Assembly: GCA_963595255.1 (NCBI GenBank)
Contig: CAVBHX010000003.1
Coordinates: forward strand, 20,944-84,943
Direction: 5' to 3'
From: a bacterium
Lineage (GTDB): Bacteria > Bacillota > Clostridia > Lachnospirales > Lachnospiraceae
DNA: 64,000 nt
The notes under the pieces are model-generated. The model was not told where the DNA came from. It worked only from the letters and a program-made list of their open reading frames with translations, and did no database searches. Positions 1 to 58,985 of the stretch are shown in pieces. Position 1 is the first letter of the stretch, and each line of letters begins with the position of its first letter. The position numbers and the translations under genes are program-made.

Positions 1-248
1 TATCTGACATTATCGGAACTGTCATCTCCCTTCAGCGTAATCTCCACGCGCCCCGTCGGAACGCTCTTGTTCTGATTCACTTCTACAGACTCGATCTTGT
101 CGTTCTGAACCAGCTGTTGGAATTTCTTCCAGGAAATTTCTTTCTCTCGTTGATCGAACTGATTGGTAAACCACAGTGCTGCGAACAAAAATACGACAAA
201 CACGAGGAATACAACACCATTCAGCCCTCTCGCTTTCTTATTATTCAA
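1..248 (-). CDS. ftsH: ATP-dependent zinc metalloprotease FtsH, N-terminal fragment (continues off the left edge)
   Basis: Not in the ORF track. The reverse complement from TTG at 248 (AGGAG about 8 nt upstream) reads MNNKKARGLNGVVFLVFVVFLFAALWFTNQFDQREKEISWKKFQQLVQNDKIESVEVNQ. That is one TM helix followed by an FtsH extracellular-domain-like segment. It lies directly downstream of tilS-hpt, as in Bacillus and Clostridia. Confidence 0.65.
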   Translation of the reverse strand, partial: MNNKKARGLNGVVFLVFVVFLFAALWFTNQFDQREKEISWKKFQQLVQNDKIESVEVNQNKSVPTGRVEITLKGDDSSDNVR

Positions 249-276
249 TTTTCAGGCTCCTTTCTTATGCCGCGCC

Positions 277-804
277 TTATTCCACGCCCTCTACCACTCC
301 GATGAATGGAAGATTTCTGTATCTCTGGGCGTAATCCAGGCCATATCCCACAACGAATTCGTCCGGGATATTGAATCCGACATAATCTACTTTTACATCT
401 TTTACTCTTCTTTCCGGTTTATCCAGAAGCGTACAGAGCTTCATGCTCTTTGGATTTCTCTTAGATAAGATGTCCATCAGATAATATAATGTTCTTCCGG
501 AGTCAATAATATCCTCCACGATCAGTACATCTTTTCCTTCCAGTGTCTCATCTAAGTCTTTTGCGATCTTAACAACACCGCTTGATTTTGTTCCGTCACC
601 GTAGCTGCTGACACTCATAAAGTCCATTGATACCGGAACGGTAATTCTCTTTGCAAGTTCGCACATAAAGAATACACCACCCTTTAATACGCAGATCAGA
701 TGTACCTGCTTTCCGGCATAATCTTTGCTGATCTGTTCGCCAAGCTCTTTGATTCTCTTTGCAACATCTTCTTCAGGAACTAATACTTTTACTTTCTCTG
801 CCAT
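277..804 (-). CDS. hpt: hypoxanthine phosphoribosyltransferase
   Basis: 175 aa. PRTase signature LIVEDIIDSGRTL and typical Hpt N-terminus (VLKGGVFFMCEL). GGAGGAG RBS upstream of the ATG. Confidence 0.95.
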   Translation of the reverse strand: MAEKVKVLVPEEDVAKRIKELGEQISKDYAGKQVHLICVLKGGVFFMCELAKRITVPVSMDFMSVSSYGDGTKSSGVVKIAKDLDETLEGKDVLIVEDIIDSGRTLYYLMDILSKRNPKSMKLCTLLDKPERRVKDVKVDYVGFNIPDEFVVGYGLDYAQRYRNLPFIGVVEGVE

Positions 805-9954: not shown

Positions 9955-10195
9955 CACAAAAAACGCCGGGCCTTTCGACTCCCCGTAAAAGGGACCGAAA
10001 AGCTCGGCGGTACCACCCTAGTTAACTGCGACCCTTTCGCAGCTCTCTTCATTGGCCGTTAACGCCGGCTGACACGCTGCACTTTCATGCAGTGGCTCCA
10101 GGACCGGTTCCATGTGATGAACAGCAGATATCTCACACCATATGATATCCTCTCTGTGGCTGGATTCTCATGTACTAATTCCCTTCATTGCCATA
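9955..10195 (-). promoter_or_regulatory. T-box riboswitch leader of proS (Pro specifier likely)
   Basis: The minus strand shows an AGAGA box, a GGUGUGAGA distal-loop motif and GAACCGGUCCUGG containing the CCG/CCU Pro codons. The T-box core UAGGGUGGUACCGCCGAG is followed by a terminator ending in UUUUUU. Promoter TTGACA-17-TAAAAT lies at about 10256..10228. Confidence 0.85.
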
Positions 10196-10274
10196 AAAGC
10201 ATATTTAAAAATGTTGAATTGTCAATTATTTTAATCCATGAAATATGTTTTGTCAAGAAAGCACCTGATTATTT

Positions 10275-26266: not shown

Positions 26267-27385
26267 TTAAAGTGCATACCTCTCATTTTTTTCTACGACT
26301 ACCTTCACACCATTTTCACCAACATAGCGTGTGTTCGCCCGGATCGTATCCCGGCTTTCTACAATACAGTTCTCAATATATGCATTGTCTCCGAGATAGA
26401 CATCATTCAGAATAATGGAATTCTTAATGACACAGTTGTTCCCCACGAATGTCTTCTTGAAAAGAATCGAATTCTCGACTGTACCATTAATGATACTTCC
26501 ACTCGCCACAAGGCTGTTCTTAACCATAGATCCCGGGTTGTATTTTGCCGGCGGCAGATCGCTGACCTTGGAATAAATACCCGGCTGTGTCCGGAAGAAA
26601 TACTCACGTACTTCCGGTTTCAGGAAATCCATATTCGTCTGATAATATGCATCCACTGTTGAAATGTTGCTCCAGTAATCTTTTATTTTATAACCGTAGA
26701 TTTTCTTCAGATTCTTATATCTGATAAGAATATCGGTCACAAAATCATGTCTGTCATCTTCTGCGCAATGTTCGATCAGATCGATCAGCTGGCGTCTTCT
26801 GATTACATAGATACCTGTCGATACAATCTGCGACTGTGCCACCATCGGCTTTTCCTCGAACTCTTCAATACGCATCGAATCATTCATCTTGATCGTTCCG
26901 AAACGGCTTGCATCTTCGTTCGGACCAAGTTCTTTGCATACCACTGTAATATCCGCTTTCTTTGCAATGTGATATTCCAGTACTTTGTTATAATCCATCT
27001 TATATACAGCATCACCGGATGTAATGATTACATAAGGTTCGTGACATCTCTTTAAGAAATCCAGATTCTGATAAATTGCGTCTGCTGTTCCGCGGTACCA
27101 GTATCCGTTCTCCGCGGTGATCGTCGGGGTAAATACATATAATCCCCCCTGCTTTCTTCCGAAATCCCACCATTTTGAAGAATTCAGATGTTCATTCAAC
27201 GAACGGGCATTGTACTGTGTCAGAACTGCCACCTTCTGAATATGAGAGTTTGACATATTACTGAGTGCAAAGTCAATCGCTCTGTAACTTCCGGCGATCG
27301 GCATTGCTGCCACTGCTCTTTTATGTGTCAGTTCACGCATCTTATTGCTGTTACCACCTGCTAAAATAATTCCTACTGCTCTCAT
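26267..27385 (-). CDS. glgD: glucose-1-phosphate adenylyltransferase regulatory subunit GlgD
   Basis: 372 aa NTP-transferase plus left-handed beta-helix protein. It lies directly downstream of and overlaps glgC, the Firmicute glgC-glgD arrangement. Confidence 0.85.
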
Positions 27386-28656
27386 GCTCGTTCACCTGCC
27401 TTTATCAATGTTTCTCCACTTTCCAGTACTCCATTCGGGTAATCTTCTTTGGATGTTACTCCACTGATAGCAGTGTTCTTTCCAATCTGCACCCCATCCG
27501 GTATTACAGATTTTTCACCCACGGCAACCAGGCCAAATGAATAAATTGCCGGTTTTAATTTGTTCGGTATATCACTTCCGATGCCAAATGTAGTATTATC
27601 CCCAACCAGGCAATTTTCTGCAATGATTGCCTTGTCCATGACACAATTCTTACCAACCCTGGTATCTTTCATGATAATAGAATCCCTGATCACGGATCCT
27701 TCTCCTATAACAACTCCGGATCCGATAATACTGTTATGTACTTCACCATATACTTCCGCACCGTTACAGATAATACTTCTCTCGATCACTGACTGTGCCG
27801 AAATATACTGTGGCGGCAGAATCTCACTGTTGGTATATATCTTCCAGAATTCTTCATATAAATTGAACTCCGGTATGATATCGATCAGTTCCATATTGGC
27901 TTCCCAGTAAGATCCCAGTGTTCCGACATCTTTCCAGTAACCGTTATATTCATATGCGAACAATCTCTCACCTTTATTGTGACAATATGGAATGATATGC
28001 TTTCCGAAGTCACAACCAGGCTCGTCCTTCAATGTCTCCAACGCTTCCTTCAGGACTTTCCATGAGAATATATAAATTCCCATAGATGCCAGATTACTCT
28101 TTGGTTCCGCAGGTTTTTCCTGGAATTCCTGAATCCTTCCATCTTCATCTGCGATAACAATACCGAAACGGCTTGCCTCTTCCATCGGCACCGGCATTGC
28201 CGCAATCGTCACGTCTGCGTTATTCGCCTTATGATAATCCAGCATTACTTCATAGTCCATTTTATAAATGTGATCCCCTGATAAGATCAGTACATAATCC
28301 GGATCAAACTGCTCCATATAATCCAGATTCTGATAAATTGCGTTCGCAGTTCCGGAATACCATTCACTGCTTCCGCTTCTCTCATATGGTGGAAGAACCG
28401 TTACTCCTCCGTAATTCCTGTCAAGATCCCAGGGAATACCGATTCCTATATGCGCATTCAATCTCAATGGCTGATACTGGGTCAATACACCCACCGTATC
28501 AATTCCTGAATTAATGCAGTTGCTGAGTGGAAAGTCAATAATGCGATATTTACCTCCAAATGCAACGGCAGGTTTTGCAACTTTTGCTGTGAGGACTCCA
28601 AGTCTGCTGCCCTGTCCTCCTGCCAGCAGCATTGCTATCATTTCCTTCTTTCTCAT
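27382..28656 (-). CDS. glgC: glucose-1-phosphate adenylyltransferase
   Basis: 424 aa. LAGGQGSRL...[18 protein letters not shown] is the canonical GlgC N-terminus. Confidence 0.93.
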
Positions 28657-52358: not shown

Positions 52359-54965
52359 CTATGAAATCGGGAATTTTATCGTTACTTTAAACAAATCTCC
52401 ATCCAGATACAATTCAAATGTCCCGCCCTGCATTTCTGTCAGCGACTGTGCGATAGACAGTCCAAGTCCGCTGCCTTCCGTACTTCTTGATACATCTCCG
52501 CGTATGAAACGTTCCGTCAGTTCGTCAGCTGAGATATTTAACGGCTGCTCGGATACATTCTTAAGGCTGAAATATGCCATACCATCTTTCTTTTCAAGAT
52601 CAGCATAGACTCTTGTTCCTTGCATTGCGTATTTTGCCGCATTGTTGTATATATTAGACAGCACTCTCCACAACCGTCTTCCGTCTGCGCGGATTACAAC
52701 CTCCTCATTCGGAAGGTTCATCACTTCCTCCAGATCACGCGCCTTGAATTTTTCTTCAAACTCTCCGCTCGTCTGCTGGATCATTTCTACCAGATTCAGA
52801 TTCATGAACTCCAGTGTGATATTGCCGGAGCTTACTTTTGAAGCTTCCACCACATCTTCCGTCAGTGTCTTAAGCCGCTGTGATTTCTGTTCCAGAACTT
52901 CAATATAGCGCTGGATCTTCGGATCCTTAAGGTCCTCCTGCTTTAACAATTCCACATAATTAATGATAGATGTAAGCGGCGTCTTAATATCATGCGATAC
53001 ATTCGTGATAAGATCTGTCTTCAGACGTTCACTTTTCATGCTCTTTGCGAGCGCCGCTTCCAGACCTTCGCCGATGGAATTCACCTTTTCTGCAATTTCT
53101 TTATGCTCTGCCAGCAATCCATTTACCGGGATCTGATAATCCACTTCCCCGCCGGCGATCTTCTCGATCCCGGTCTTGATCTTTCCGGTTCCTTTCGCTT
53201 TCTGTACCATCCAGATAAATGCTGCAACATCTATGATCAACAGAATGACCGCCCATAACCGGTTGCTGATCCAGATACTACTTCCCGCTGATCCAAATAC
53301 GTATGACAGCCAGTGGATCATGAAGAAGATCGCAAATCCCATAATAGATTTCCACAGATGACGGATATTCTGGAACATTTCTTTTACGAAGATCAAAAGC
53401 CATCTGAGCACACTGTTCTTCCATACCGTTCCCGCCTTGATTCTTCTCACCAGACTCAAATATCCGAAAAGAAACATTGCGCAGGTATACAATGCCACCA
53501 CACTTCCAACCACTATTCCCGGCAGATACGACTCCACATTCTCCATATAGATCGTCTCTCCACTTGCATTCTGCCATGTAAATGCCCCGGCCTTTACTCC
53601 TACCAGCGCAACCACCGCCCAGAGTAACAGCACACTTGCAGCTGCCAGTTCTGTCTTAATGTGATCAAATTTCATAAGATGCACTTCTTCGTCTTCTTTA
53701 ACTTTTCCGGCTCCGATCGTAAGAAATACAAGAATGACAAGATATGCCGCTACAGCCGCCATTCCCAGTATTCCGGCCACTTTGGCTCCGGCCCCGTACC
53801 TTGTAAAGATCTCATCCTGTTCATAAAAATTATCTTTTACAGGATAATCCGTATCTACAACAGAGACATATATATAATCTGACGCATCGACATAACCGGC
53901 CACTGTCTCCTGCCACTCCTGTGCCATCGAATCCCCTTTACCGGCTTTTTCAATATTGCTTTCATAATCTGCAAGCTTTGGTCTTACGATTACATATTTT
54001 CCTGATTTTTTCATTTTTTTCAGGTTCTCTTTGTAATTGTCAAAGTTCTGATATTTTTTCTTATTCGTAATGACCGTCTTGTTGTCCAGATTAACATACA
54101 GATACGTTATGTTCGTATTGCCTTCCTGATACTGGTTCTGAGATACCGCATAATTATCAACGTCAGAATAGATCGTTTCGGCTGAATTATTTATCATTCT
54201 GTACGCTTCATTCAGCTTGCCATTCCATTCTTTTGAATTATTCACAAGCTGAAGTACCGTCTCTCCATTTACCGTCTTATAATCCCCGACAACTCTTTCA
54301 CCATCATAATTCCAGCAATTGATATAGACAATCTTTCCATCGATATCCTGAAGTCCCCGGAATCTGGATTCCCCACTGTTGCTCTCCTGATACTCTCCCT
54401 GCTTTAGTTCTGTCAGAATATCATCCGCAGAACTGTCTCCGGTAATTACAAATGACAGCTCTCCGTAATCGATCATCTGTTTAAAATCTTTGTAATGGAA
54501 ATAATGATAAGTTCCGTCTGAACGTTTACATACGATAATACAATCCTGTTTATCTAATTTGCTCCTTGCTGCATCATAATCCGTCATCGATTCCGAGATT
54601 AATTTTCCCCAGGAATACAGATCTCCCAGACGGAACGACAGGCCTGTTTCATCTTTTCCTGTTATCTCACCGGTATCTTCGTATTTTGCCACATCTACGA
54701 TCTTATCCGGATCATATTTGCCATCTGTATCATATAAGGTCTGATACCGGATCTCGTCCAGGATATTATAATTTGCATTCGCCACGGAATCGGCAAATGC
54801 ATTGCTTTCTTCATAAGTCTTCGCCGCATCCGCAGTGAACAGTTCCTGTGTCAGTATCGGATAACGTGTTGCCCACAGTAAACATAATACTCCGATAACG
54901 GCCAGTACGTGTGCCCCCACTGTCAAAAACAATTTTGCTTTGGGCATTCGGTACCATTTCTTCAT
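52359..54965 (-). CDS. sensor histidine kinase with a large extracytoplasmic domain
   Basis: 868 aa. N-terminal TM helix, roughly 370 aa extracellular region, multi-TM block, H-box SHDIKTPLTSI and G-box GSGLGLSIA. Confidence 0.88.
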   Translation of the reverse strand: MKKWYRMPKAKLFLTVGAHVLAVIGVLCLLWATRYPILTQELFTADAAKTYEESNAFADSVANANYNILDEIRYQTLYDTDGKYDPDKIVDVAKYEDTGEITGKDETGLSFRLGDLYSWGKLISESMTDYDAARSKLDKQDCIIVCKRSDGTYHYFHYKDFKQMIDYGELSFVITGDSSADDILTELKQGEYQESNSGESRFRGLQDIDGKIVYINCWNYDGERVVGDYKTVNGETVLQLVNNSKEWNGKLNEAYRMINNSAETIYSDVDNYAVSQNQYQEGNTNITYLYVNLDNKTVITNKKKYQNFDNYKENLKKMKKSGKYVIVRPKLADYESNIEKAGKGDSMAQEWQETVAGYVDASDYIYVSVVDTDYPVKDNFYEQDEIFTRYGAGAKVAGILGMAAVAAYLVILVFLTIGAGKVKEDEEVHLMKFDHIKTELAAASVLLLWAVVALVGVKAGAFTWQNASGETIYMENVESYLPGIVVGSVVALYTCAMFLFGYLSLVRRIKAGTVWKNSVLRWLLIFVKEMFQNIRHLWKSIMGFAIFFMIHWLSYVFGSAGSSIWISNRLWAVILLIIDVAAFIWMVQKAKGTGKIKTGIEKIAGGEVDYQIPVNGLLAEHKEIAEKVNSIGEGLEAALAKSMKSERLKTDLITNVSHDIKTPLTSIINYVELLKQEDLKDPKIQRYIEVLEQKSQRLKTLTEDVVEASKVSSGNITLEFMNLNLVEMIQQTSGEFEEKFKARDLEEVMNLPNEEVVIRADGRRLWRVLSNIYNNAAKYAMQGTRVYADLEKKDGMAYFSLKNVSEQPLNISADELTERFIRGDVSRSTEGSGLGLSIAQSLTEMQGGTFELYLDGDLFKVTIKFPIS

Positions 54966-54977
54966 ATATGCTCCTTC

Positions 54978-55673
54978 CTAAAGCTTTTCTATCTTATATC
55001 CGACACCCCAGACCACCTTCAGATACCTTGGTTCCTTTGGATTAATCTCGATCTTCTCTCTGATATGACGGATATGTACAGCTACCGTATTATCTACTCC
55101 GATAGCATCTTCATTCCAGATACTTTCGTATATCTGGTCAATAGAAAATACTTTCCCCTGATTTTTTACCAGTAACAATAAAATGTTGTATTCGATCGGT
55201 GTCAGTTTCACCGGCTCTCCGTCAACCGTAATTTCTTTCTGATCGTCATCGATCATAAGTCCTCCCACGGTATAAACTGCCTGATTCTCTTTTTCCACTG
55301 TACTTCCAAGCTGTGTATATCTGCGAAGCTGGGATTTTACCCTTGCAGTCAGTTCCAGTGGATTAAATGGCTTGGTCATATAATCATCGGCTCCTACGTT
55401 CAGTCCGAGGATCTTATCGGCATCCTCTGACTTTGCAGACAGAATAATGATCGGCATATTCTGTTTTTCCCGGATTTTTAACGTTGCGCGGATTCCATCC
55501 AATCTTGGCATCATCACATCAATGATCAGAAGATCCACTTTATGCTTATCCAAAAGCTTCAATGCTTCCTCACCGTCGTAAGCTTTTAATACTTTATATC
55601 CTTCCTGCGACAGATAGATTTCTATCGCCTCTACGATTTCTTTATCATCATCACATACCAGTATGTTGTACAT
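54978..55673 (-). CDS. OmpR-family response regulator
   Basis: 231 aa. Receiver domain (ILVCDDD, DVMMP) and winged helix (VWGVGYK). Confidence 0.92.
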   Translation of the reverse strand: MYNILVCDDDKEIVEAIEIYLSQEGYKVLKAYDGEEALKLLDKHKVDLLIIDVMMPRLDGIRATLKIREKQNMPIIILSAKSEDADKILGLNVGADDYMTKPFNPLELTARVKSQLRRYTQLGSTVEKENQAVYTVGGLMIDDDQKEITVDGEPVKLTPIEYNILLLLVKNQGKVFSIDQIYESIWNEDAIGVDNTVAVHIRHIREKIEINPKEPRYLKVVWGVGYKIEKL

Positions 55674-55959
55674 AATTCATCACCTCCCTTATAATATACA
55701 AGAATAACAGCCAATTTTTAAGTACTGCTTCTGTAATTTCTTAAGATATTATGAAATTATTCCTTTCCGCCCACTTTATCAGAGATATGCAGAGTGTTAA
55801 TATTTCGTCAAAAAATAATAAACTATATTTTTCTTAAGCAGATTTTTTATATAATAGATATGGATATCTTTTTAATATTGTTTCATACTGCAAACATTTC
55901 TTTTTTAACCGTTACATTTTAAATATTAAAAATTAACTTAGAAAGAAGATGAAAGTATT

Positions 55960-56319
55960 ATGCATGAACCAGAAATAGAATATCTTATCCGGTCTCTTGG
56001 CATTGGCGCTACTTATCGGGGATATGCATATTTAATTTATGGGACACGCCTTTGTCTGTCTGATGAAAATTACCTCCTTTTCGTCAGTAAGTATCTTTAT
56101 CCAGACATTGCACGTCATTATAATACTACCAGCTATAGCGTTGAGCGGAATATCCGCACCGTTATAAAGGTCTGTTGGGAGCATGGCAATAAATCCCTCC
56201 TCGAAAAGATTGCTTTGCGTCCACTGCATCTTAAGCCGACATCCAGTGAATTTTTTGATATAATAACTGCTCATTTGCGAAAAACTGCCATTTCTGCCTC
56301 TGATCTTGTTCCTGTTTAG
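55960..56319 (+). CDS. stand-alone Spo0A C-terminal (DNA-binding) domain protein
   Basis: 119 aa. GYAYLIYG...LYPDIARHYNTTSYSVERNIRTVI matches the Spo0A_C effector-domain pattern (..T..vERaIRhaI). No receiver domain is present. Confidence 0.75.
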   Translation: MHEPEIEYLIRSLGIGATYRGYAYLIYGTRLCLSDENYLLFVSKYLYPDIARHYNTTSYSVERNIRTVIKVCWEHGNKSLLEKIALRPLHLKPTSSEFFDIITAHLRKTAISASDLVPV

Positions 56320-56418
56320 ATTCTGTTTTTATATGCTTCATTTTTACTTAAGATTTTTTCGAATTCTTTTATGCTTTTAACATATTTTAGACATATTTTC
56401 CATTTATACTAAATGTCA

Positions 56419-56552
56419 GATAGTTGATGAACAACAACTATCACCCCCCTCATAAAGTAACACACCGAAATCACTCTTCGGTGTACACTTTACTCTCATT
56501 CCTTTAGTAATTATAACAACAACAAAAAACTCTCCGGAACGGAGAGTTTTTT
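56419..56552 (+). ncRNA. candidate small RNA, copy 1 of a duplicated structured element
   Basis: TATACT at 56405..56410 lies 8 nt upstream. The element reads hairpin GATAGTTG-ATGAACAA-CAACTATC, then ACCCCCCTCATAAAGTAA, then hairpin CACACCGAA..TTCGGTGT, then CACTTTAC. It is followed by the terminator CTCTCCG-GAA-CGGAGAG plus TTTTTT (56530..56552). Confidence 0.45.
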
Positions 56553-56605
56553 GTTGCGCTTTTTTAATAAAACAGATCACAAGCCACACTGTTTACATAT
56601 TCTTG

Positions 56606-56935
56606 TTAAAATACAACGACAAGCAGCATCTTAAACTGCTCTTTTCCGTGCACTGCATGCGGATGCTTTGCCGGCATAATAATTGATTCACCTTCATGTA
56701 ACTCATATTTTTCGCCGTCGATCGTAATCTCACCTACTCCGTCAAGACAGGTTACAAATGCATCCCCGCCTGATTCATGTGTACTGATCTCTTCTCCTTT
56801 GTCAAAAGAGAATAATGTAACACTCAATGCATCGTTCTGCGCCAGTGTTTTGCTGACTACCTGTCCTTCCTGGTAAGCTACCTGATCTTTTAATACTAAT
56901 ACTTCTGCTTTACTGATATTTTTGATCATACTCAT
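56606..56935 (-). CDS. cupin domain protein
   Basis: 109 aa. Cupin motifs (ISTHESGGDAF...GE...MPAKHPHAV). Confidence 0.85.
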   Translation of the reverse strand: MSMIKNISKAEVLVLKDQVAYQEGQVVSKTLAQNDALSVTLFSFDKGEEISTHESGGDAFVTCLDGVGEITIDGEKYELHEGESIIMPAKHPHAVHGKEQFKMLLVVVF

Positions 56936-57107
56936 ATCTATTAGTCCTTTCTTTTATCCTATTTGTTATTGTATTCCTCAATAACATTTTTCCCTTGTCT
57001 CTTACTATAATACTTTTTTTCGTTCTAAAATGTGGTTTTAACAACAAATATCACATTTTTATAAAATGAACATACTTTGTACACATTTTTTGATTATAAT
57101 AGGAAAA

Positions 57108-57223
57108 GATAGTTGGATAACAACTATCGCCCCCCTCATAAAGTAAAGGCCGCCAGAAGGTCACTTCTGGCGGTCCACTTTACCGGTAATTTCTGCGGAT
57201 GCTTTTACGGCTCCGCTTTTTTT
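57108..57223 (+). ncRNA. candidate small RNA, copy 2 of a duplicated structured element
   Basis: TATAAT at 57095..57100 lies 7 nt upstream. The element reads hairpin GATAGTTG-GATAA-CAACTATC, then GCCCCCCTCATAAAGTAA, then hairpin GCCGCCAGAAG..CTTCTGGCGG, then CACTTTAC. A weaker hairpin GCGGA..TCCGC plus TTTTTTT (57195..57223) overlaps the 3' end of the convergent gene. Confidence 0.4.
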
Positions 57224-58593
57224 AATTGTTCATACCAGGCAGTCGTCTGGTCTTTATCCTTATTATTCATGAATACCGTATATTTCTTTGTCTTAATCTG
57301 TATGACTTCCGATTGTTCCAGCCACACATACATCCGGCATTTTCCCGATTCTGCTCCGTCAAATTTTCCAAGTAACTGTTTTTCATCAGCCGAACCATTG
57401 GTTTTACTAAAATGTTCCTCCGGAAGCCCATTTTTTAATAATTTTACGGATTTTATATCCTCTTTTTTTATCTCCGTATTGGTGTAACCGGATGTGATCT
57501 TAAAACTGCTGCCGCTATCTGCCAGATGTACCGGGACAAAGTCCATCCGGATCATCATAATACATACCCATACCAGCAATATCACCGTACCGGCCAGAAC
57601 TCCGCCAACCATACAACGTCCCACCGGTCTTCCAAGATTCGTTGTATAATTCATACCGTTAAAACGATCCTGGATAAACAGACGGCTGTCATCAGGATTA
57701 CTATACCAGCCATTCCGCCAGTAATAATCGTCATCTACAAACAGCGGCGTCTTATCCATCTGCAAAATTGCCTGTTTGGCTTTTCTCAGATACCAGTATC
57801 CGACAAATATTCCCACAACTGCCAGGAACAATATCACTGTATAAATATATCCAGCCATTTTTACTCCGGCATATATAAGATACAGCGTTGCAATGTCATT
57901 ACAGATACTTTCTGTCAGAAAGCCTGCTGACCAGTATCTTTTTTCCAGGTCATTCAGGCGGCGGTTGATCTGCGAGTCTTCACTGTATACTTTATTTCTC
58001 TGTCTTCTGAATATCCATGCACAGAATAAAAATGTCACCCATACAGCAATCCCGGCCCCAAAGATTGCACCCATCCCAGGAATGTCCTTGATTCCTGCTC
58101 TGACCTTTTCCGATACAAACGGAGCTGCTAAAACTGCCAATGTAAGCAGATGCAGCCACAGCGGAAGTGCCGCCTGTCCGCTTCCTGACGATAATCTGGT
58201 ATCTACCATCATCATCTGTCCACTCTCTTCGCTGCTCCATCCATATGCAACTTTCATATCATAAAGTCTTCTGTGATTCCTGTAAATGAGATAGAGACTT
58301 CCGGCCATAAATTCAATCAACCATACACACCACGCAATCATGAAAATGGAAAAATACCAGAAACACAGACCACAGAGTAGTATTCCTGCAATCAGATTCC
58401 ATACATAGAACCTTTTTAATTTCTTCTTGTAATCCTGGATAAATGCGGTTACTGTTGTTCCTTTGGCATACTGTTCTTCCATATGTACGCCCAGGATCAT
58501 ACCCTCGTAATATTTTGTCTTGCCGCCATATACTCCATAAGTGATCGCAACTAAGAATAAATCCATTAAGACAAACACAATCGCCATCGTCAT
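57205..58593 (-). CDS. multi-pass membrane protein with a C-terminal bPH-like domain
   Basis: 462 aa with about 9 TM helices and a soluble C-terminal roughly 110 aa. There is a 4-nt overlap with the upstream GntR gene. Confidence 0.65.
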   Translation of the reverse strand: MTMAIVFVLMDLFLVAITYGVYGGKTKYYEGMILGVHMEEQYAKGTTVTAFIQDYKKKLKRFYVWNLIAGILLCGLCFWYFSIFMIAWCVWLIEFMAGSLYLIYRNHRRLYDMKVAYGWSSEESGQMMMVDTRLSSGSGQAALPLWLHLLTLAVLAAPFVSEKVRAGIKDIPGMGAIFGAGIAVWVTFLFCAWIFRRQRNKVYSEDSQINRRLNDLEKRYWSAGFLTESICNDIATLYLIYAGVKMAGYIYTVILFLAVVGIFVGYWYLRKAKQAILQMDKTPLFVDDDYYWRNGWYSNPDDSRLFIQDRFNGMNYTTNLGRPVGRCMVGGVLAGTVILLVWVCIMMIRMDFVPVHLADSGSSFKITSGYTNTEIKKEDIKSVKLLKNGLPEEHFSKTNGSADEKQLLGKFDGAESGKCRMYVWLEQSEVIQIKTKKYTVFMNNKDKDQTTAWYEQLKKAEP

Positions 58594-58985
58594 TCTGCTG
58601 CCACCTCCATTCTGCTAAATGCCTGTCTGCAATAATCCAGGAAATCTTTATAACTCATTCCGCGGATCTTCGCTTCTGCACTTAAGAGTTCCAGCTCTTC
58701 TTCTAATTTCTCCTGAAATTCTTCCTGGTGATCTTTCGCTTCATATCCGGGAAGGCAGATCACAGTTCCCCGCCTGCGGTCCGTCTCTATGAATCCTTCG
58801 GATTTTAACAGCTGATACGCCTTACTTACCGTCATGTTATTGATTCCCAGGTCTGCTGCCATCTGCCGGACGGTTGGAAGAAGTTCGCCTTCTTCAAATT
58901 CTCCTTTTCCAATACCCATTACGATCTGGTTGCGGAGCTGGAGGTAAATTGGAATTTCGGATTTCATATTTATTTTTATGATCAT
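58590..58985 (-). CDS. GntR-family transcriptional regulator (YtrA subfamily)
   Basis: 131 aa. Winged HTH LPTVRQMAADLGINNMTVSKAYQLLKSEGFIETDRRRGT and a short C-terminal helical region. Confidence 0.88.
   Translation of the reverse strand: MIIKINMKSEIPIYLQLRNQIVMGIGKGEFEEGELLPTVRQMAADLGINNMTVSKAYQLLKSEGFIETDRRRGTVICLPGYEAKDHQEEFQEKLEEELELLSAEAKIRGMSYKDFLDYCRQAFSRMEVAAE

Follow-up and report, generated by a model that had tools for sequence, protein, structure and literature searches.

What is encoded by two similar units that lie on both sides of a cupin gene in a Lachnospiraceae genome, what switches them on, and on what could they act? The question is raised by a 64,000-nt stretch of contig CAVBHX010000003.1 (assembly GCA_963595255.1, positions 20,944 to 84,943 of the forward strand), called the window below; positions are counted from its first letter. 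The initial annotation, made from the sequence alone, described the units as duplicated, promoter-bearing, structured RNA elements with an exposed C-rich tract. On comparison with related genomes, they are two genes of an undescribed small RNA (sRNA) family that is widespread, and often multicopy, in gut Lachnospiraceae. What had been missed is that the two units are members of this large family and not a local duplication.

The units are on the same strand and 690 nt apart, and the parts annotated in them were found in the sequence where they had been placed. Seven to eight bases past the -10 box, which is TATACT in copy 1 and TATAAT in copy 2, both have an identical 8-bp stem P1, GATAGTTG/CAACTATC, with different loops (ATGAACAA in copy 1, GATAA in copy 2). 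The stretch (A/G)CCCCCCTCATAAAGTAA follows, identical between the units, at 56443-56460 and 57129-57146. The second hairpins (56462-56484 and 57148-57175) are unlike in sequence and each is self-complementary, and in both units CACTTTAC pairs with AAAGT and closes a short helix. A second conserved single-stranded tract of copy 1, at 56493-56508, had not been singled out, and the conserved segment upstream of the units, about 75 bp, is much longer than described before. The features are as follows, stems and seeds being taken from predicted folds.

56417..56552, plus strand: sRNA copy 1, canonical type, about 136 nt with predicted ends; fold z-score -8.1, covariance model 100 bits
56419-56426/56435-56442, plus strand: P1 of copy 1
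56443-56452, plus strand: exposed seed 1 of copy 1, ACCCCCCUCA
56453-58/56487-92, plus strand: P2 of copy 1
56462-69/56477-84, plus strand: P3 of copy 1
56493-56508, plus strand: exposed seed 2 of copy 1, CUCUCAUUCCUUUAGU
56520-36/56540-56, plus strand: terminator stem of copy 1, with the U-run 56547-52 inside the 3' arm
57106..57223, plus strand: sRNA copy 2, Dorea-specific subtype, about 118 nt; predicted fold, covariance model 69 bits
57108-15/57121-28, plus strand: P1 of copy 2
57129-38, plus strand: seed of copy 2, GCCCCCCUCA; there is no second seed in this copy
57139-44/57177-82, plus strand: P2 of copy 2
57148-59/57164-75, plus strand: P3 of copy 2, GC-rich, 12-bp
57195-57216 and U7 57217-57223, plus strand: own terminator of copy 2, a hairpin followed by the U-run

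The terminator noted after copy 1 is bidirectional and common to the cupin gene. Copy 2 had been read as running antisense into the membrane-protein gene; the overlap stands for about the last 19 nt of this open reading frame (ORF; stop codon 57205-57207), but copy 2 has its own terminator there. The tail of copy 1 at 56502-56516, with the family consensus UAGAUAACUAUAA, repeats the 3' arm of P1 (AACUAU), and could pair with the 5' arm of P1 in an alternative structure.

The likeness of the two units is not due to chance. The 17-mer that they share occurs exactly twice in the window, 0.12 occurrences being expected, and none of 100 shuffles gave two matches. Folding of both units is far beyond that of shuffled sequence (z-scores -5.5 to -8.1). 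The covariance model of the family found copy 1 with 100 bits (E ~1e-18) and copy 2 with 69 bits (E ~3e-12), and nothing above 16 bits in the rest of the 64-kb window. A weak match at 55659-55755 (plus strand, 16 bits, E = 0.3) lies in the promoter region of the response regulator (RR) gene described below and is probably due merely to shared AT-rich boxes.

To find relatives, one genome per species was scanned for the pattern CCCCCCTCATAAAGTAA-N15-45-TTTAC; family, promoter, and neighbour counts are given among the matches listed. At least 119 genomic stretches carry the exact motif, in more than 15 Lachnospiraceae genera, and where a family or genus is given in the record of a listed stretch, it nearly always belongs to the Lachnospiraceae, among them Dorea, Mediterraneibacter (including [Ruminococcus] torques and faecis), Faecalicatena, Sellimonas, Extibacter, Bariatricus, Coprococcus comes, Hespellia, Muricomes, Faecalimonas, and Claveliimonas. 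These stretches gave 134 unique copies, all on one plan of promoter, P1 (cAGAUAGUUG-loop-CAACUAUCu), CCCCCCUCAUAAAGUAA, variable hairpin P3, cACUUUACUCUCAUUCCUUUAGAUAACUAUAA, and terminator. An exposed tract CCCCCCUCAU comes after P1, an invariant P2 encloses the hypervariable P3, and canonical copies add a second exposed tract, CUCUCAUUCCUUUAG.

The covariance model, R1, was built from 27 diverse copies, with both window copies among them. It recognized 140 copies with 58-113 bits in 99 loci and the window, one copy cut off at a contig end being left out of this count, and some of these copies are without the exact 17-mer. Searched in relatives by this model, as the initial annotation had proposed, the elements turned out to be a multicopy family with compensatory changes. 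Up to four copies are clustered within 8 kb (four in locus L055; three each in L027, L028, L053, and L072). Copy 1 is canonical. In copy 2, the 3' tract CUCUCAUUCCUUUAG is missing, and P3 is longer and GC-rich. Among the matches listed, this subtype was found only in the Dorea loci L017, L024, L038, L061, L076, and L116, with 67-71 bits in the first five, and in all six it adjoins a canonical copy. Judging by the loci closest to it, the window most likely belongs to a species of Dorea. The cupin protein beside the units is encoded on thousands of public contigs, and both units were present in 10 of 10 strains fetched. A search of the literature for this motif and for sRNAs of Lachnospiraceae gave no published match and no described sRNA of Dorea, Mediterraneibacter, or relatives matching this family.

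Conservation of structure was judged mainly on P3, which is hypervariable, with 120 distinct inserts among the 134 copies. Folded one by one, each of the 120 inserts gives one hairpin with 6 bp or more (median 10 bp, median z = -5.8). On the alignment based on the model, 92.3% of cells are paired, against 30-52% when the partners are slid by 1-3 columns, and changes on both sides of the pair occur in nine of nine modelled P3 pairs and three of nine P1 pairs; P2 never varies and so is uninformative for covariation. One point weighs against these pair counts, as the alignment behind them was fitted to the model and leans towards structure; the per-sequence P3 folds are independent of it. Alignment of the 134 full-length copies in MAFFT followed by RNAalifold picked up no more than the conserved P1 and P2, the variable P3 and the terminators having been misaligned, and was replaced by per-sequence folding and covariance-model alignment. 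The annotated pattern of a structure kept while its sequence changes is borne out in the P3 hairpins and their compensatory changes.

The C-rich tract is predicted to be unpaired, as had been claimed, with a mean unpaired probability of 0.90 for seed 1 in the predicted folds of the 134 copies; the corresponding value for seed 2, CUCUCAUUCCUUU, is 0.84 across the family. GGA occurs in about half of the P3 apical regions, and GGAG, GGGA, or GGGG in 36% of them. Apices of the GGA type are found for example in L014, L023, and L053 and are absent from both window copies. Since such motifs are complementary to the C-tract, self-sequestration or binding of a protein is possible in some lineages.

Are the units genes of their own? 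A near-invariant TATACT-type -10 box sits 6-7 nt ahead of AGATAG in 129 of 130 family promoters. Downstream, on the same strand, come strong terminators with runs of U, and the gene beyond them (a hydrolase gene; the cupin gene in the window) is convergent in the usual gene order. These features argue for stand-alone genes and not for leaders, and agree with the annotation of the units as promoter-bearing. Of the marks of trans-acting base-pairing sRNAs, the family has its own promoter, an intrinsic terminator, no co-oriented downstream ORF, a structure with compensatory changes, and a conserved single-stranded seed. A small minus-strand ORF of about 13 aa, ATGAGGGGGGAG..., starting at CAT and read by eye, was rejected, as it has no conserved Shine-Dalgarno (SD) sequence and the lengths of the P1 loops vary by non-multiples of three, which excludes this ORF. 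With high confidence, the comparative signature is that of a selected, structured, and independently transcribed RNA family.

Multicopy and often tandem occurrence could also belong to non-coding repeated DNA, such as elements like repetitive extragenic palindromes or miniature inverted-repeat transposable elements, a phage or plasmid remnant, or DNA hairpins, with copy 2 perhaps only a cis-antisense RNA or a terminator. The hairpins would form in DNA too, and copy 2 extends into the 3' end of a convergent ORF. However, the position of the units is syntenic across genera, their anatomy is oriented from promoter through hairpins to terminator, no terminal inverted repeats were seen, and copy 2 is kept in 10 strains in which no intact membrane-protein gene was called. 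Only four matches turned up among 2.9 million viral contigs, and plasmids gave none; together with the syntenic position, this makes a mobile-element origin unlikely. Repeated DNA is the least probable of the explanations weighed here.

The genes beyond copy 2, coding for a GntR-family regulator and a 462-aa DUF5808/bPH membrane protein (57205-58985, minus strand), are complete in the window. In L002 and L005, internal deletions of differing extents have left remnants of them, and no intact GntR or membrane-protein gene was called in any of the ten loci L001-L010, where the adjoining sRNA copy is kept.

What drives these genes was approached through their promoters, in which the following elements were located.

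56335..56357, plus strand: distal module of copy 1, two 11-bp-spaced boxes; conservation in 132 promoters
56377..56398, plus strand: proximal module of copy 1, direct repeat TTAACATATTTTAGACATATTT; conservation and matrix scan
56405..56410, plus strand: -10 box TATACT of copy 1; near-invariant in the family
57025..57047, plus strand: distal module of copy 2, boxes CTAAAATGTGGT / TTTTAACAACAA; consensus comparison
57067..57088, plus strand: proximal direct repeat of copy 2, TGAACATACTTTGTACACATTT; conservation and matrix scan
57095..57100, plus strand: -10 box TATAAT of copy 2; sequence and family position

Conservation reaches about 75 bp upstream of the -10 box in all paralogues (132 promoters), and no -35 box at 17 bp spacing is present in the sRNA promoters. 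A proximal module, TnAACATAyTT-TrGACAyATTT, with an 11-bp period, is at -28 to -7 and occupies the -35 region; 160 of the 173 hits of its matrix scoring at least 12 in 0.9 Mb are upstream of an sRNA copy. Two TCTTAAkAwTT boxes at -70 to -48, also with an 11-bp period, make up the distal module, and TCTTAAGAA boxes are found upstream of every copy. In copy 1, distal box 2, ACTTAAGATTTT (56346-56357), is a good match to this consensus. TrGACA and TnAACA were considered as -35 boxes for sigma-A and rejected, as they are 11 and 22 bp from the -10 box and neither can be functional. Promoters of sigma E, K, and H were rejected as well, the spacings not fitting their consensus sequences.

The distal boxes lead to the neighbouring operon, which codes for a two-component system.

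54978..55673, minus strand: OmpR/PhoB-family response regulator (RR), VanR-like; NF033117, Pfam Response_reg and Trans_reg_C
52359..54965, minus strand: histidine kinase (HK), 868 aa, with a VanS-like kinase core
55737..55758, minus strand: TTAAG-type box pair (AATTTCATAATATCTTAAGAAA) in the promoter of the RR-HK operon; score 16.6 with the matrix trained on sRNA promoters

VanR is the best family match of the regulator, with 288.6 bits to NCBIfam NF033117, which is below the cut-off of 350, and the N-terminal sensor region of the kinase, about 570 aa long, is uncharacterised. RR orthologues with 77-96% identity, one 25-residue fragment at a contig end being set aside, adjoin the sRNA in 37 of the 119 listed 8-kb stretches; kinase orthologues are present in about 30 listed stretches and the hydrolase beyond the sRNA in 45. 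The usual order at RR loci is HK<RR<>(Spo0A_C or GH25-LysM gene)>sRNA(s)><hydrolase, syntenic, with the sRNA divergent from the RR-HK operon. When the distal matrix, trained solely on sRNA promoters, was applied with a score of at least 14, it marked 27 of 29 RR-operon promoters, along with 122 sRNA-upstream sites and 21 other places in 0.92 Mb. About 0.09 such sites would be expected in the RR promoters by chance, as estimated from the scan counts, and the box position is fixed at about 70 nt before the SD sequence. The motif is thus common to the sRNA promoters and the regulator's own promoter, as a regulon of this RR would have it, and these direct repeats had escaped the initial annotation. 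From the shared boxes we infer that the RR autoregulates and activates the sRNA genes; that the adjacent two-component system controls them is held with moderate confidence, judging from promoter sequences.

Several observations weigh against this control. VanR and VanRG have a footprinted site (T/C)CGTANGAAA(T/A)T, in direct repeats upstream of -35 (PMC4405338), and the family boxes fit the VanR-type consensus YCGTANGAAAWT only in part, with a mean of 8.2/12 for box 2 and 6.5/12 for box 1 against a background of 4.4 +/- 1.5 of 12; at position 3, T stands in place of G. In the window, the matches are 4/12 for box 1 and 8/12 for box 2 of copy 1, and 4/12 and 7/12 for copy 2. Distal box 1 of copy 1, GCTTCATTTTTA, is degenerate, and both distal boxes of copy 2 are weak and degenerate. 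Finally, the proximal ACATA/ACACA repeat is absent from the RR promoters, and as it also resembles reversed Spo0A boxes, a second or different regulator is likely.

Such a regulator could be a Spo0A-type protein, either Spo0A itself or the product of a neighbouring gene.

55960-56319, plus strand: stand-alone 119-aa Spo0A C-terminal DNA-binding domain (Spo0A_C) protein without a receiver domain, encoded between the RR operon and the sRNA

The consensus of the 0A box is TTCGNCA when reversed. The sRNA genes would then be governed mainly through the proximal repeat, with TnAACAT/TrGACAy as two reversed 0A boxes replacing the -35 box, the sRNAs would be linked to stationary phase or sporulation, and the two-component link would be secondary or absent. 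The proximal repeat is indeed nearly exclusive to sRNA promoters, lies in the -35 region with 11-bp spacing, and as TTrGACA matches the reversed box at 6 of 7 positions. In 18 loci, the window among them, a Spo0A_C-only gene of 119 aa directly precedes the sRNA, and canonical TTCGACA boxes precede this gene in L087 and L064. On the other hand, the core C (the G of CGAA) is present in just 3 of 132 promoters, the Spo0A_C gene is absent from most sRNA loci, and the distal boxes common to the RR promoters are left unexplained. Government mainly by a Spo0A-type protein is rather unlikely in our view, and a second input of this type is the main rival or complement to control by the RR.

The stand-alone Spo0A_C gene occurs in L015, L017, L022, L024, L029, L031, L038, L061, L064, L076, L087, L109, L111, L116, and others. 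Three or four canonical reversed 0A boxes (TTCGACA) lie upstream of it in L087 and L064; in the window it is preceded by a TTCTTAAG box (55831-55838) and TATAAT (55850-55855).

Other genes around the operon vary. The RR gene is split into ORFs of 79 aa and 133 aa in L001 (7263-7924) and L010 (7263-7924), two metagenome assemblies of the same species, by a frameshift or an assembly error, and the alpha-amylase gene upstream is likewise broken up in several strains. In Mediterraneibacter, Faecalicatena, and others, a GH25 muramidase gene with LysM precedes the sRNA (L083, 2413-3255, and 27 other loci), and the sRNA comes directly after it on the same strand in 21 of 28 cases, which hints at a cell-wall theme for the locus. 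GH25/LysM genes were rejected as regulon members, as TTAAG boxes are upstream of only 6 of the 28, and these six share the intergenic region with the RR.

On what would the sRNAs act? The initial annotation had proposed that the C-rich tract targets G-rich SD regions, as in other Firmicute sRNAs, and in kind this interpretation is supported. Both tracts resemble the anti-SD end of 16S rRNA. The transcript would begin with hairpin P1 itself, 7 nt past the -10 box, and P1 would protect the 5' end. The unpaired pyrimidine tract CCCCCCUCAU would be presented after it, followed by the rigid P2/P3 hairpin, the stem sequence of which is free to vary. Canonical copies would then present the second unpaired tract CUCUCAUUCCUUUAG, and the transcript would end at the intrinsic terminator. 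The tracts may pair in trans with G-rich ribosome-binding sites of mRNAs and repress translation. If the phosphorylated RR activates its own operon and all sRNA paralogues, the sRNAs would be the output arm of the adjacent two-component system. The anti-SD mode is proposed because of this anatomy and the established behaviour of C- and CU-rich sRNAs of low-GC Gram-positive bacteria (PMC4132741), and by this analogy it is held with moderate confidence.

Targets were predicted from duplex energies over the 59 ORF starts of the window and the orthologous RR, HK, and hydrolase starts. The best complementarity to seed 1 in the window is that of a glgC-like gene (27382-28656, minus strand; -17.8 kcal/mol), and the start of the RR gene reached -16.9 kcal/mol. 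In orthologous start regions, the median duplex energies are -14.1 kcal/mol for RR, -9.5 for HK, and -8.0 for hydrolase. Two points count against reading targets from these values: the best duplexes of the window are only slightly past the 1% random tail (-14.6 kcal/mol), and the RR site, GGGAGGUGAU, is a near-perfect SD sequence, so that the RR pairing is not specific and is a mere hint of feedback. The 27382-28656 gene has the best complementarity to both seeds among the 59 starts, and is adjacent to a second glgC/glgD-like nucleotidyl-transferase gene (26267-27385, minus strand).

The RNA could be real and yet pair with no mRNA, sequestering instead a protein or the ribosome, for instance a C-tract-binding or KH-domain protein, or CsrA through GGA in the P3 loop. 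This would suit a 17-nt tract that is invariant well past the needs of a seed, the GGA in about half of the P3 apices, and the lack of a target by duplex energies among the 59 window starts. Against it, GGA or G-rich loops are not universal and both window copies are without them, there are two separate anti-SD-like tracts, and exposed C/CU-rich tracts are an established SD-binding device of low-GC Gram-positive sRNAs (PMC4132741). Sequestration is considered improbable.

More probably, though with considerable room for doubt, the units are sibling anti-SD sRNAs, independently transcribed and activated by the adjacent VanR-like two-component system. A wider reading is tentative and we would not count on it: that a conserved but uncharacterised two-component system in abundant human-gut Lachnospiraceae (Dorea, Mediterraneibacter, Faecalicatena, Sellimonas, and others) acts largely via sibling anti-SD sRNAs whose promoters integrate VanR-like and 0A-like boxes. 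If it were true, a circuit of the csRNA/CiaRH type would have arisen independently in Clostridia, with a possible coupling of envelope sensing to the Spo0A pathway and feedback on the RR ribosome-binding site.

The family is new, the kind of regulator is a known one, and the comparative signature is unusually clear. Post-transcriptional regulation is little explored in the dominant Firmicutes of the human gut. The family is easy to recognize because the 17-mer is invariant, and it is a ready candidate for a new Rfam family. It brings a testable candidate regulator, a testable DNA motif, and a defined seed, through which an uncharacterised two-component system of abundant commensals could be approached directly.

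How does the family stand to known RNAs? In Rfam scans at gathering and E-value thresholds, no family reached threshold at either unit, which agrees with the annotation that they belong to no named RNA family and means that they are not members of RsaE/RoxS, LhrC, or csRNA. The sole Rfam match above the gathering score in the window is a T-box leader at 9987-10197 (minus strand, 110 bits). An sRNA copy of L032 is preceded, at a distance of about 340 nt, by a sub-threshold match to Clostridiales-1 RNA (163-322, plus strand, 34.6 bits, gathering score 48).

A distant relationship to RsaE/RoxS (RF01820) of Bacillales could be suspected from copy 1, which gave a sub-threshold hit of 28.3 bits (E = 0.026) aligning P2/P3, CUCUCAUUCCUUUAGUA, and the terminator. 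Both are C-rich sRNAs built of a 5' hairpin, an unpaired pyrimidine tract, and a terminator, and with an action in trans that is proposed for the family here. RoxS of Bacillus is reportedly under the OmpR-type regulator ResD. Membership was rejected: against a gathering score of 79 the hit is very low, neither P1 nor the C6 tract falls within the aligned region, and there was no hit for copy 2 or for any of 12 further loci at E up to 5. The family has one C6 run and one UUCCUUU tract, both in linkers, and no conserved C-rich motif in the loops of P1 and P3, unlike RsaE/RoxS, whose unpaired C-rich motifs (CCCC/UCCC) number two or more, with one in the 5' hairpin loop; it also has the extra P1 and C6 module, is multicopy, and lives in a different taxon. 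That the units are distant RsaE/RoxS members is very improbable.

For the candidate regulator, the comparison is with VanR/VanS of the vanA and vanG operons (PMC4405338). VanR is its best family match, and in both systems there are directly repeated sites, 12 bp in VanR, upstream of -35. The family box TCTTAAGAAwTT resembles YCGTANGAAAWT, and boxes in the regulator's own promoter would fit the autoregulation of VanR (PMC4405338). In contrast to VanR/VanS, the regulator reaches 288 bits where the VanR cut-off is 350, no van resistance genes are near the locus, the kinase has a large N-terminal region that VanS is without, and the predicted output of the regulon is sRNAs.

LhrC1-5 of Listeria monocytogenes are under LisRK and bind the SD sequences of targets by UCCC motifs (PMC4132741). 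Like the family here, they are multicopy and have redundant CU-rich motifs in single-stranded regions, with SD binding shown for LhrC. LhrC depends strictly on a two-component system, and the family does so by proposal. Of the three UCCC motifs of LhrC, two are in loops, while here the C6 run and UUCCUUU are both in linkers, and the LisR site is undefined and upstream of -53. No match to the LhrC model of Rfam was found in the window units and 12 other loci, and the arrangement of motifs differs.

The csRNAs of Streptococcus, sibling sRNAs under the two-component system CiaRH (PMC3091779), are functionally the closest system by analogy, and LhrC1-5 under LisRK come next. There is no sequence or covariance-model similarity to csRNA (Rfam model, E-value scans of the window and 12 loci), and the invariant C6 tract and the two-module promoter set the family apart from both csRNA and LhrC. 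Ten bp upstream of -10 lies TnAACA-N5-TrGACA and not NTTAAG-N5-TTTAAG, the repeat at the -35 position being AACATA-N5-GACACA. TTAAG-type repeats do occur, as CTTAAG-N5-CTTAAG compared with NTTAAG-N5-TTTAAG of csRNA promoters, about 45 bp further upstream (-70 to -48 from -10). The candidate regulator is VanR-like and not CiaR, the sRNA locus adjoins the two-component operon and is syntenic with it, and the host is clostridial, of a different phylum-level clade. What is shared is the architecture, as a functional analogy: sibling genes, two to six per genome for csRNA, each with its own promoter; a good -10 box, no -35 box, and a direct repeat of hexamers, 11 bp in period, that stops about 10 bp short of -10; stem-loops flanking an unpaired stretch complementary to SD, then an intrinsic terminator; and an OmpR-family activator, here a candidate. 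If control by the adjacent system is true, the family would be a second independent case of a two-component system driving sibling sRNAs, as in streptococci and Listeria.

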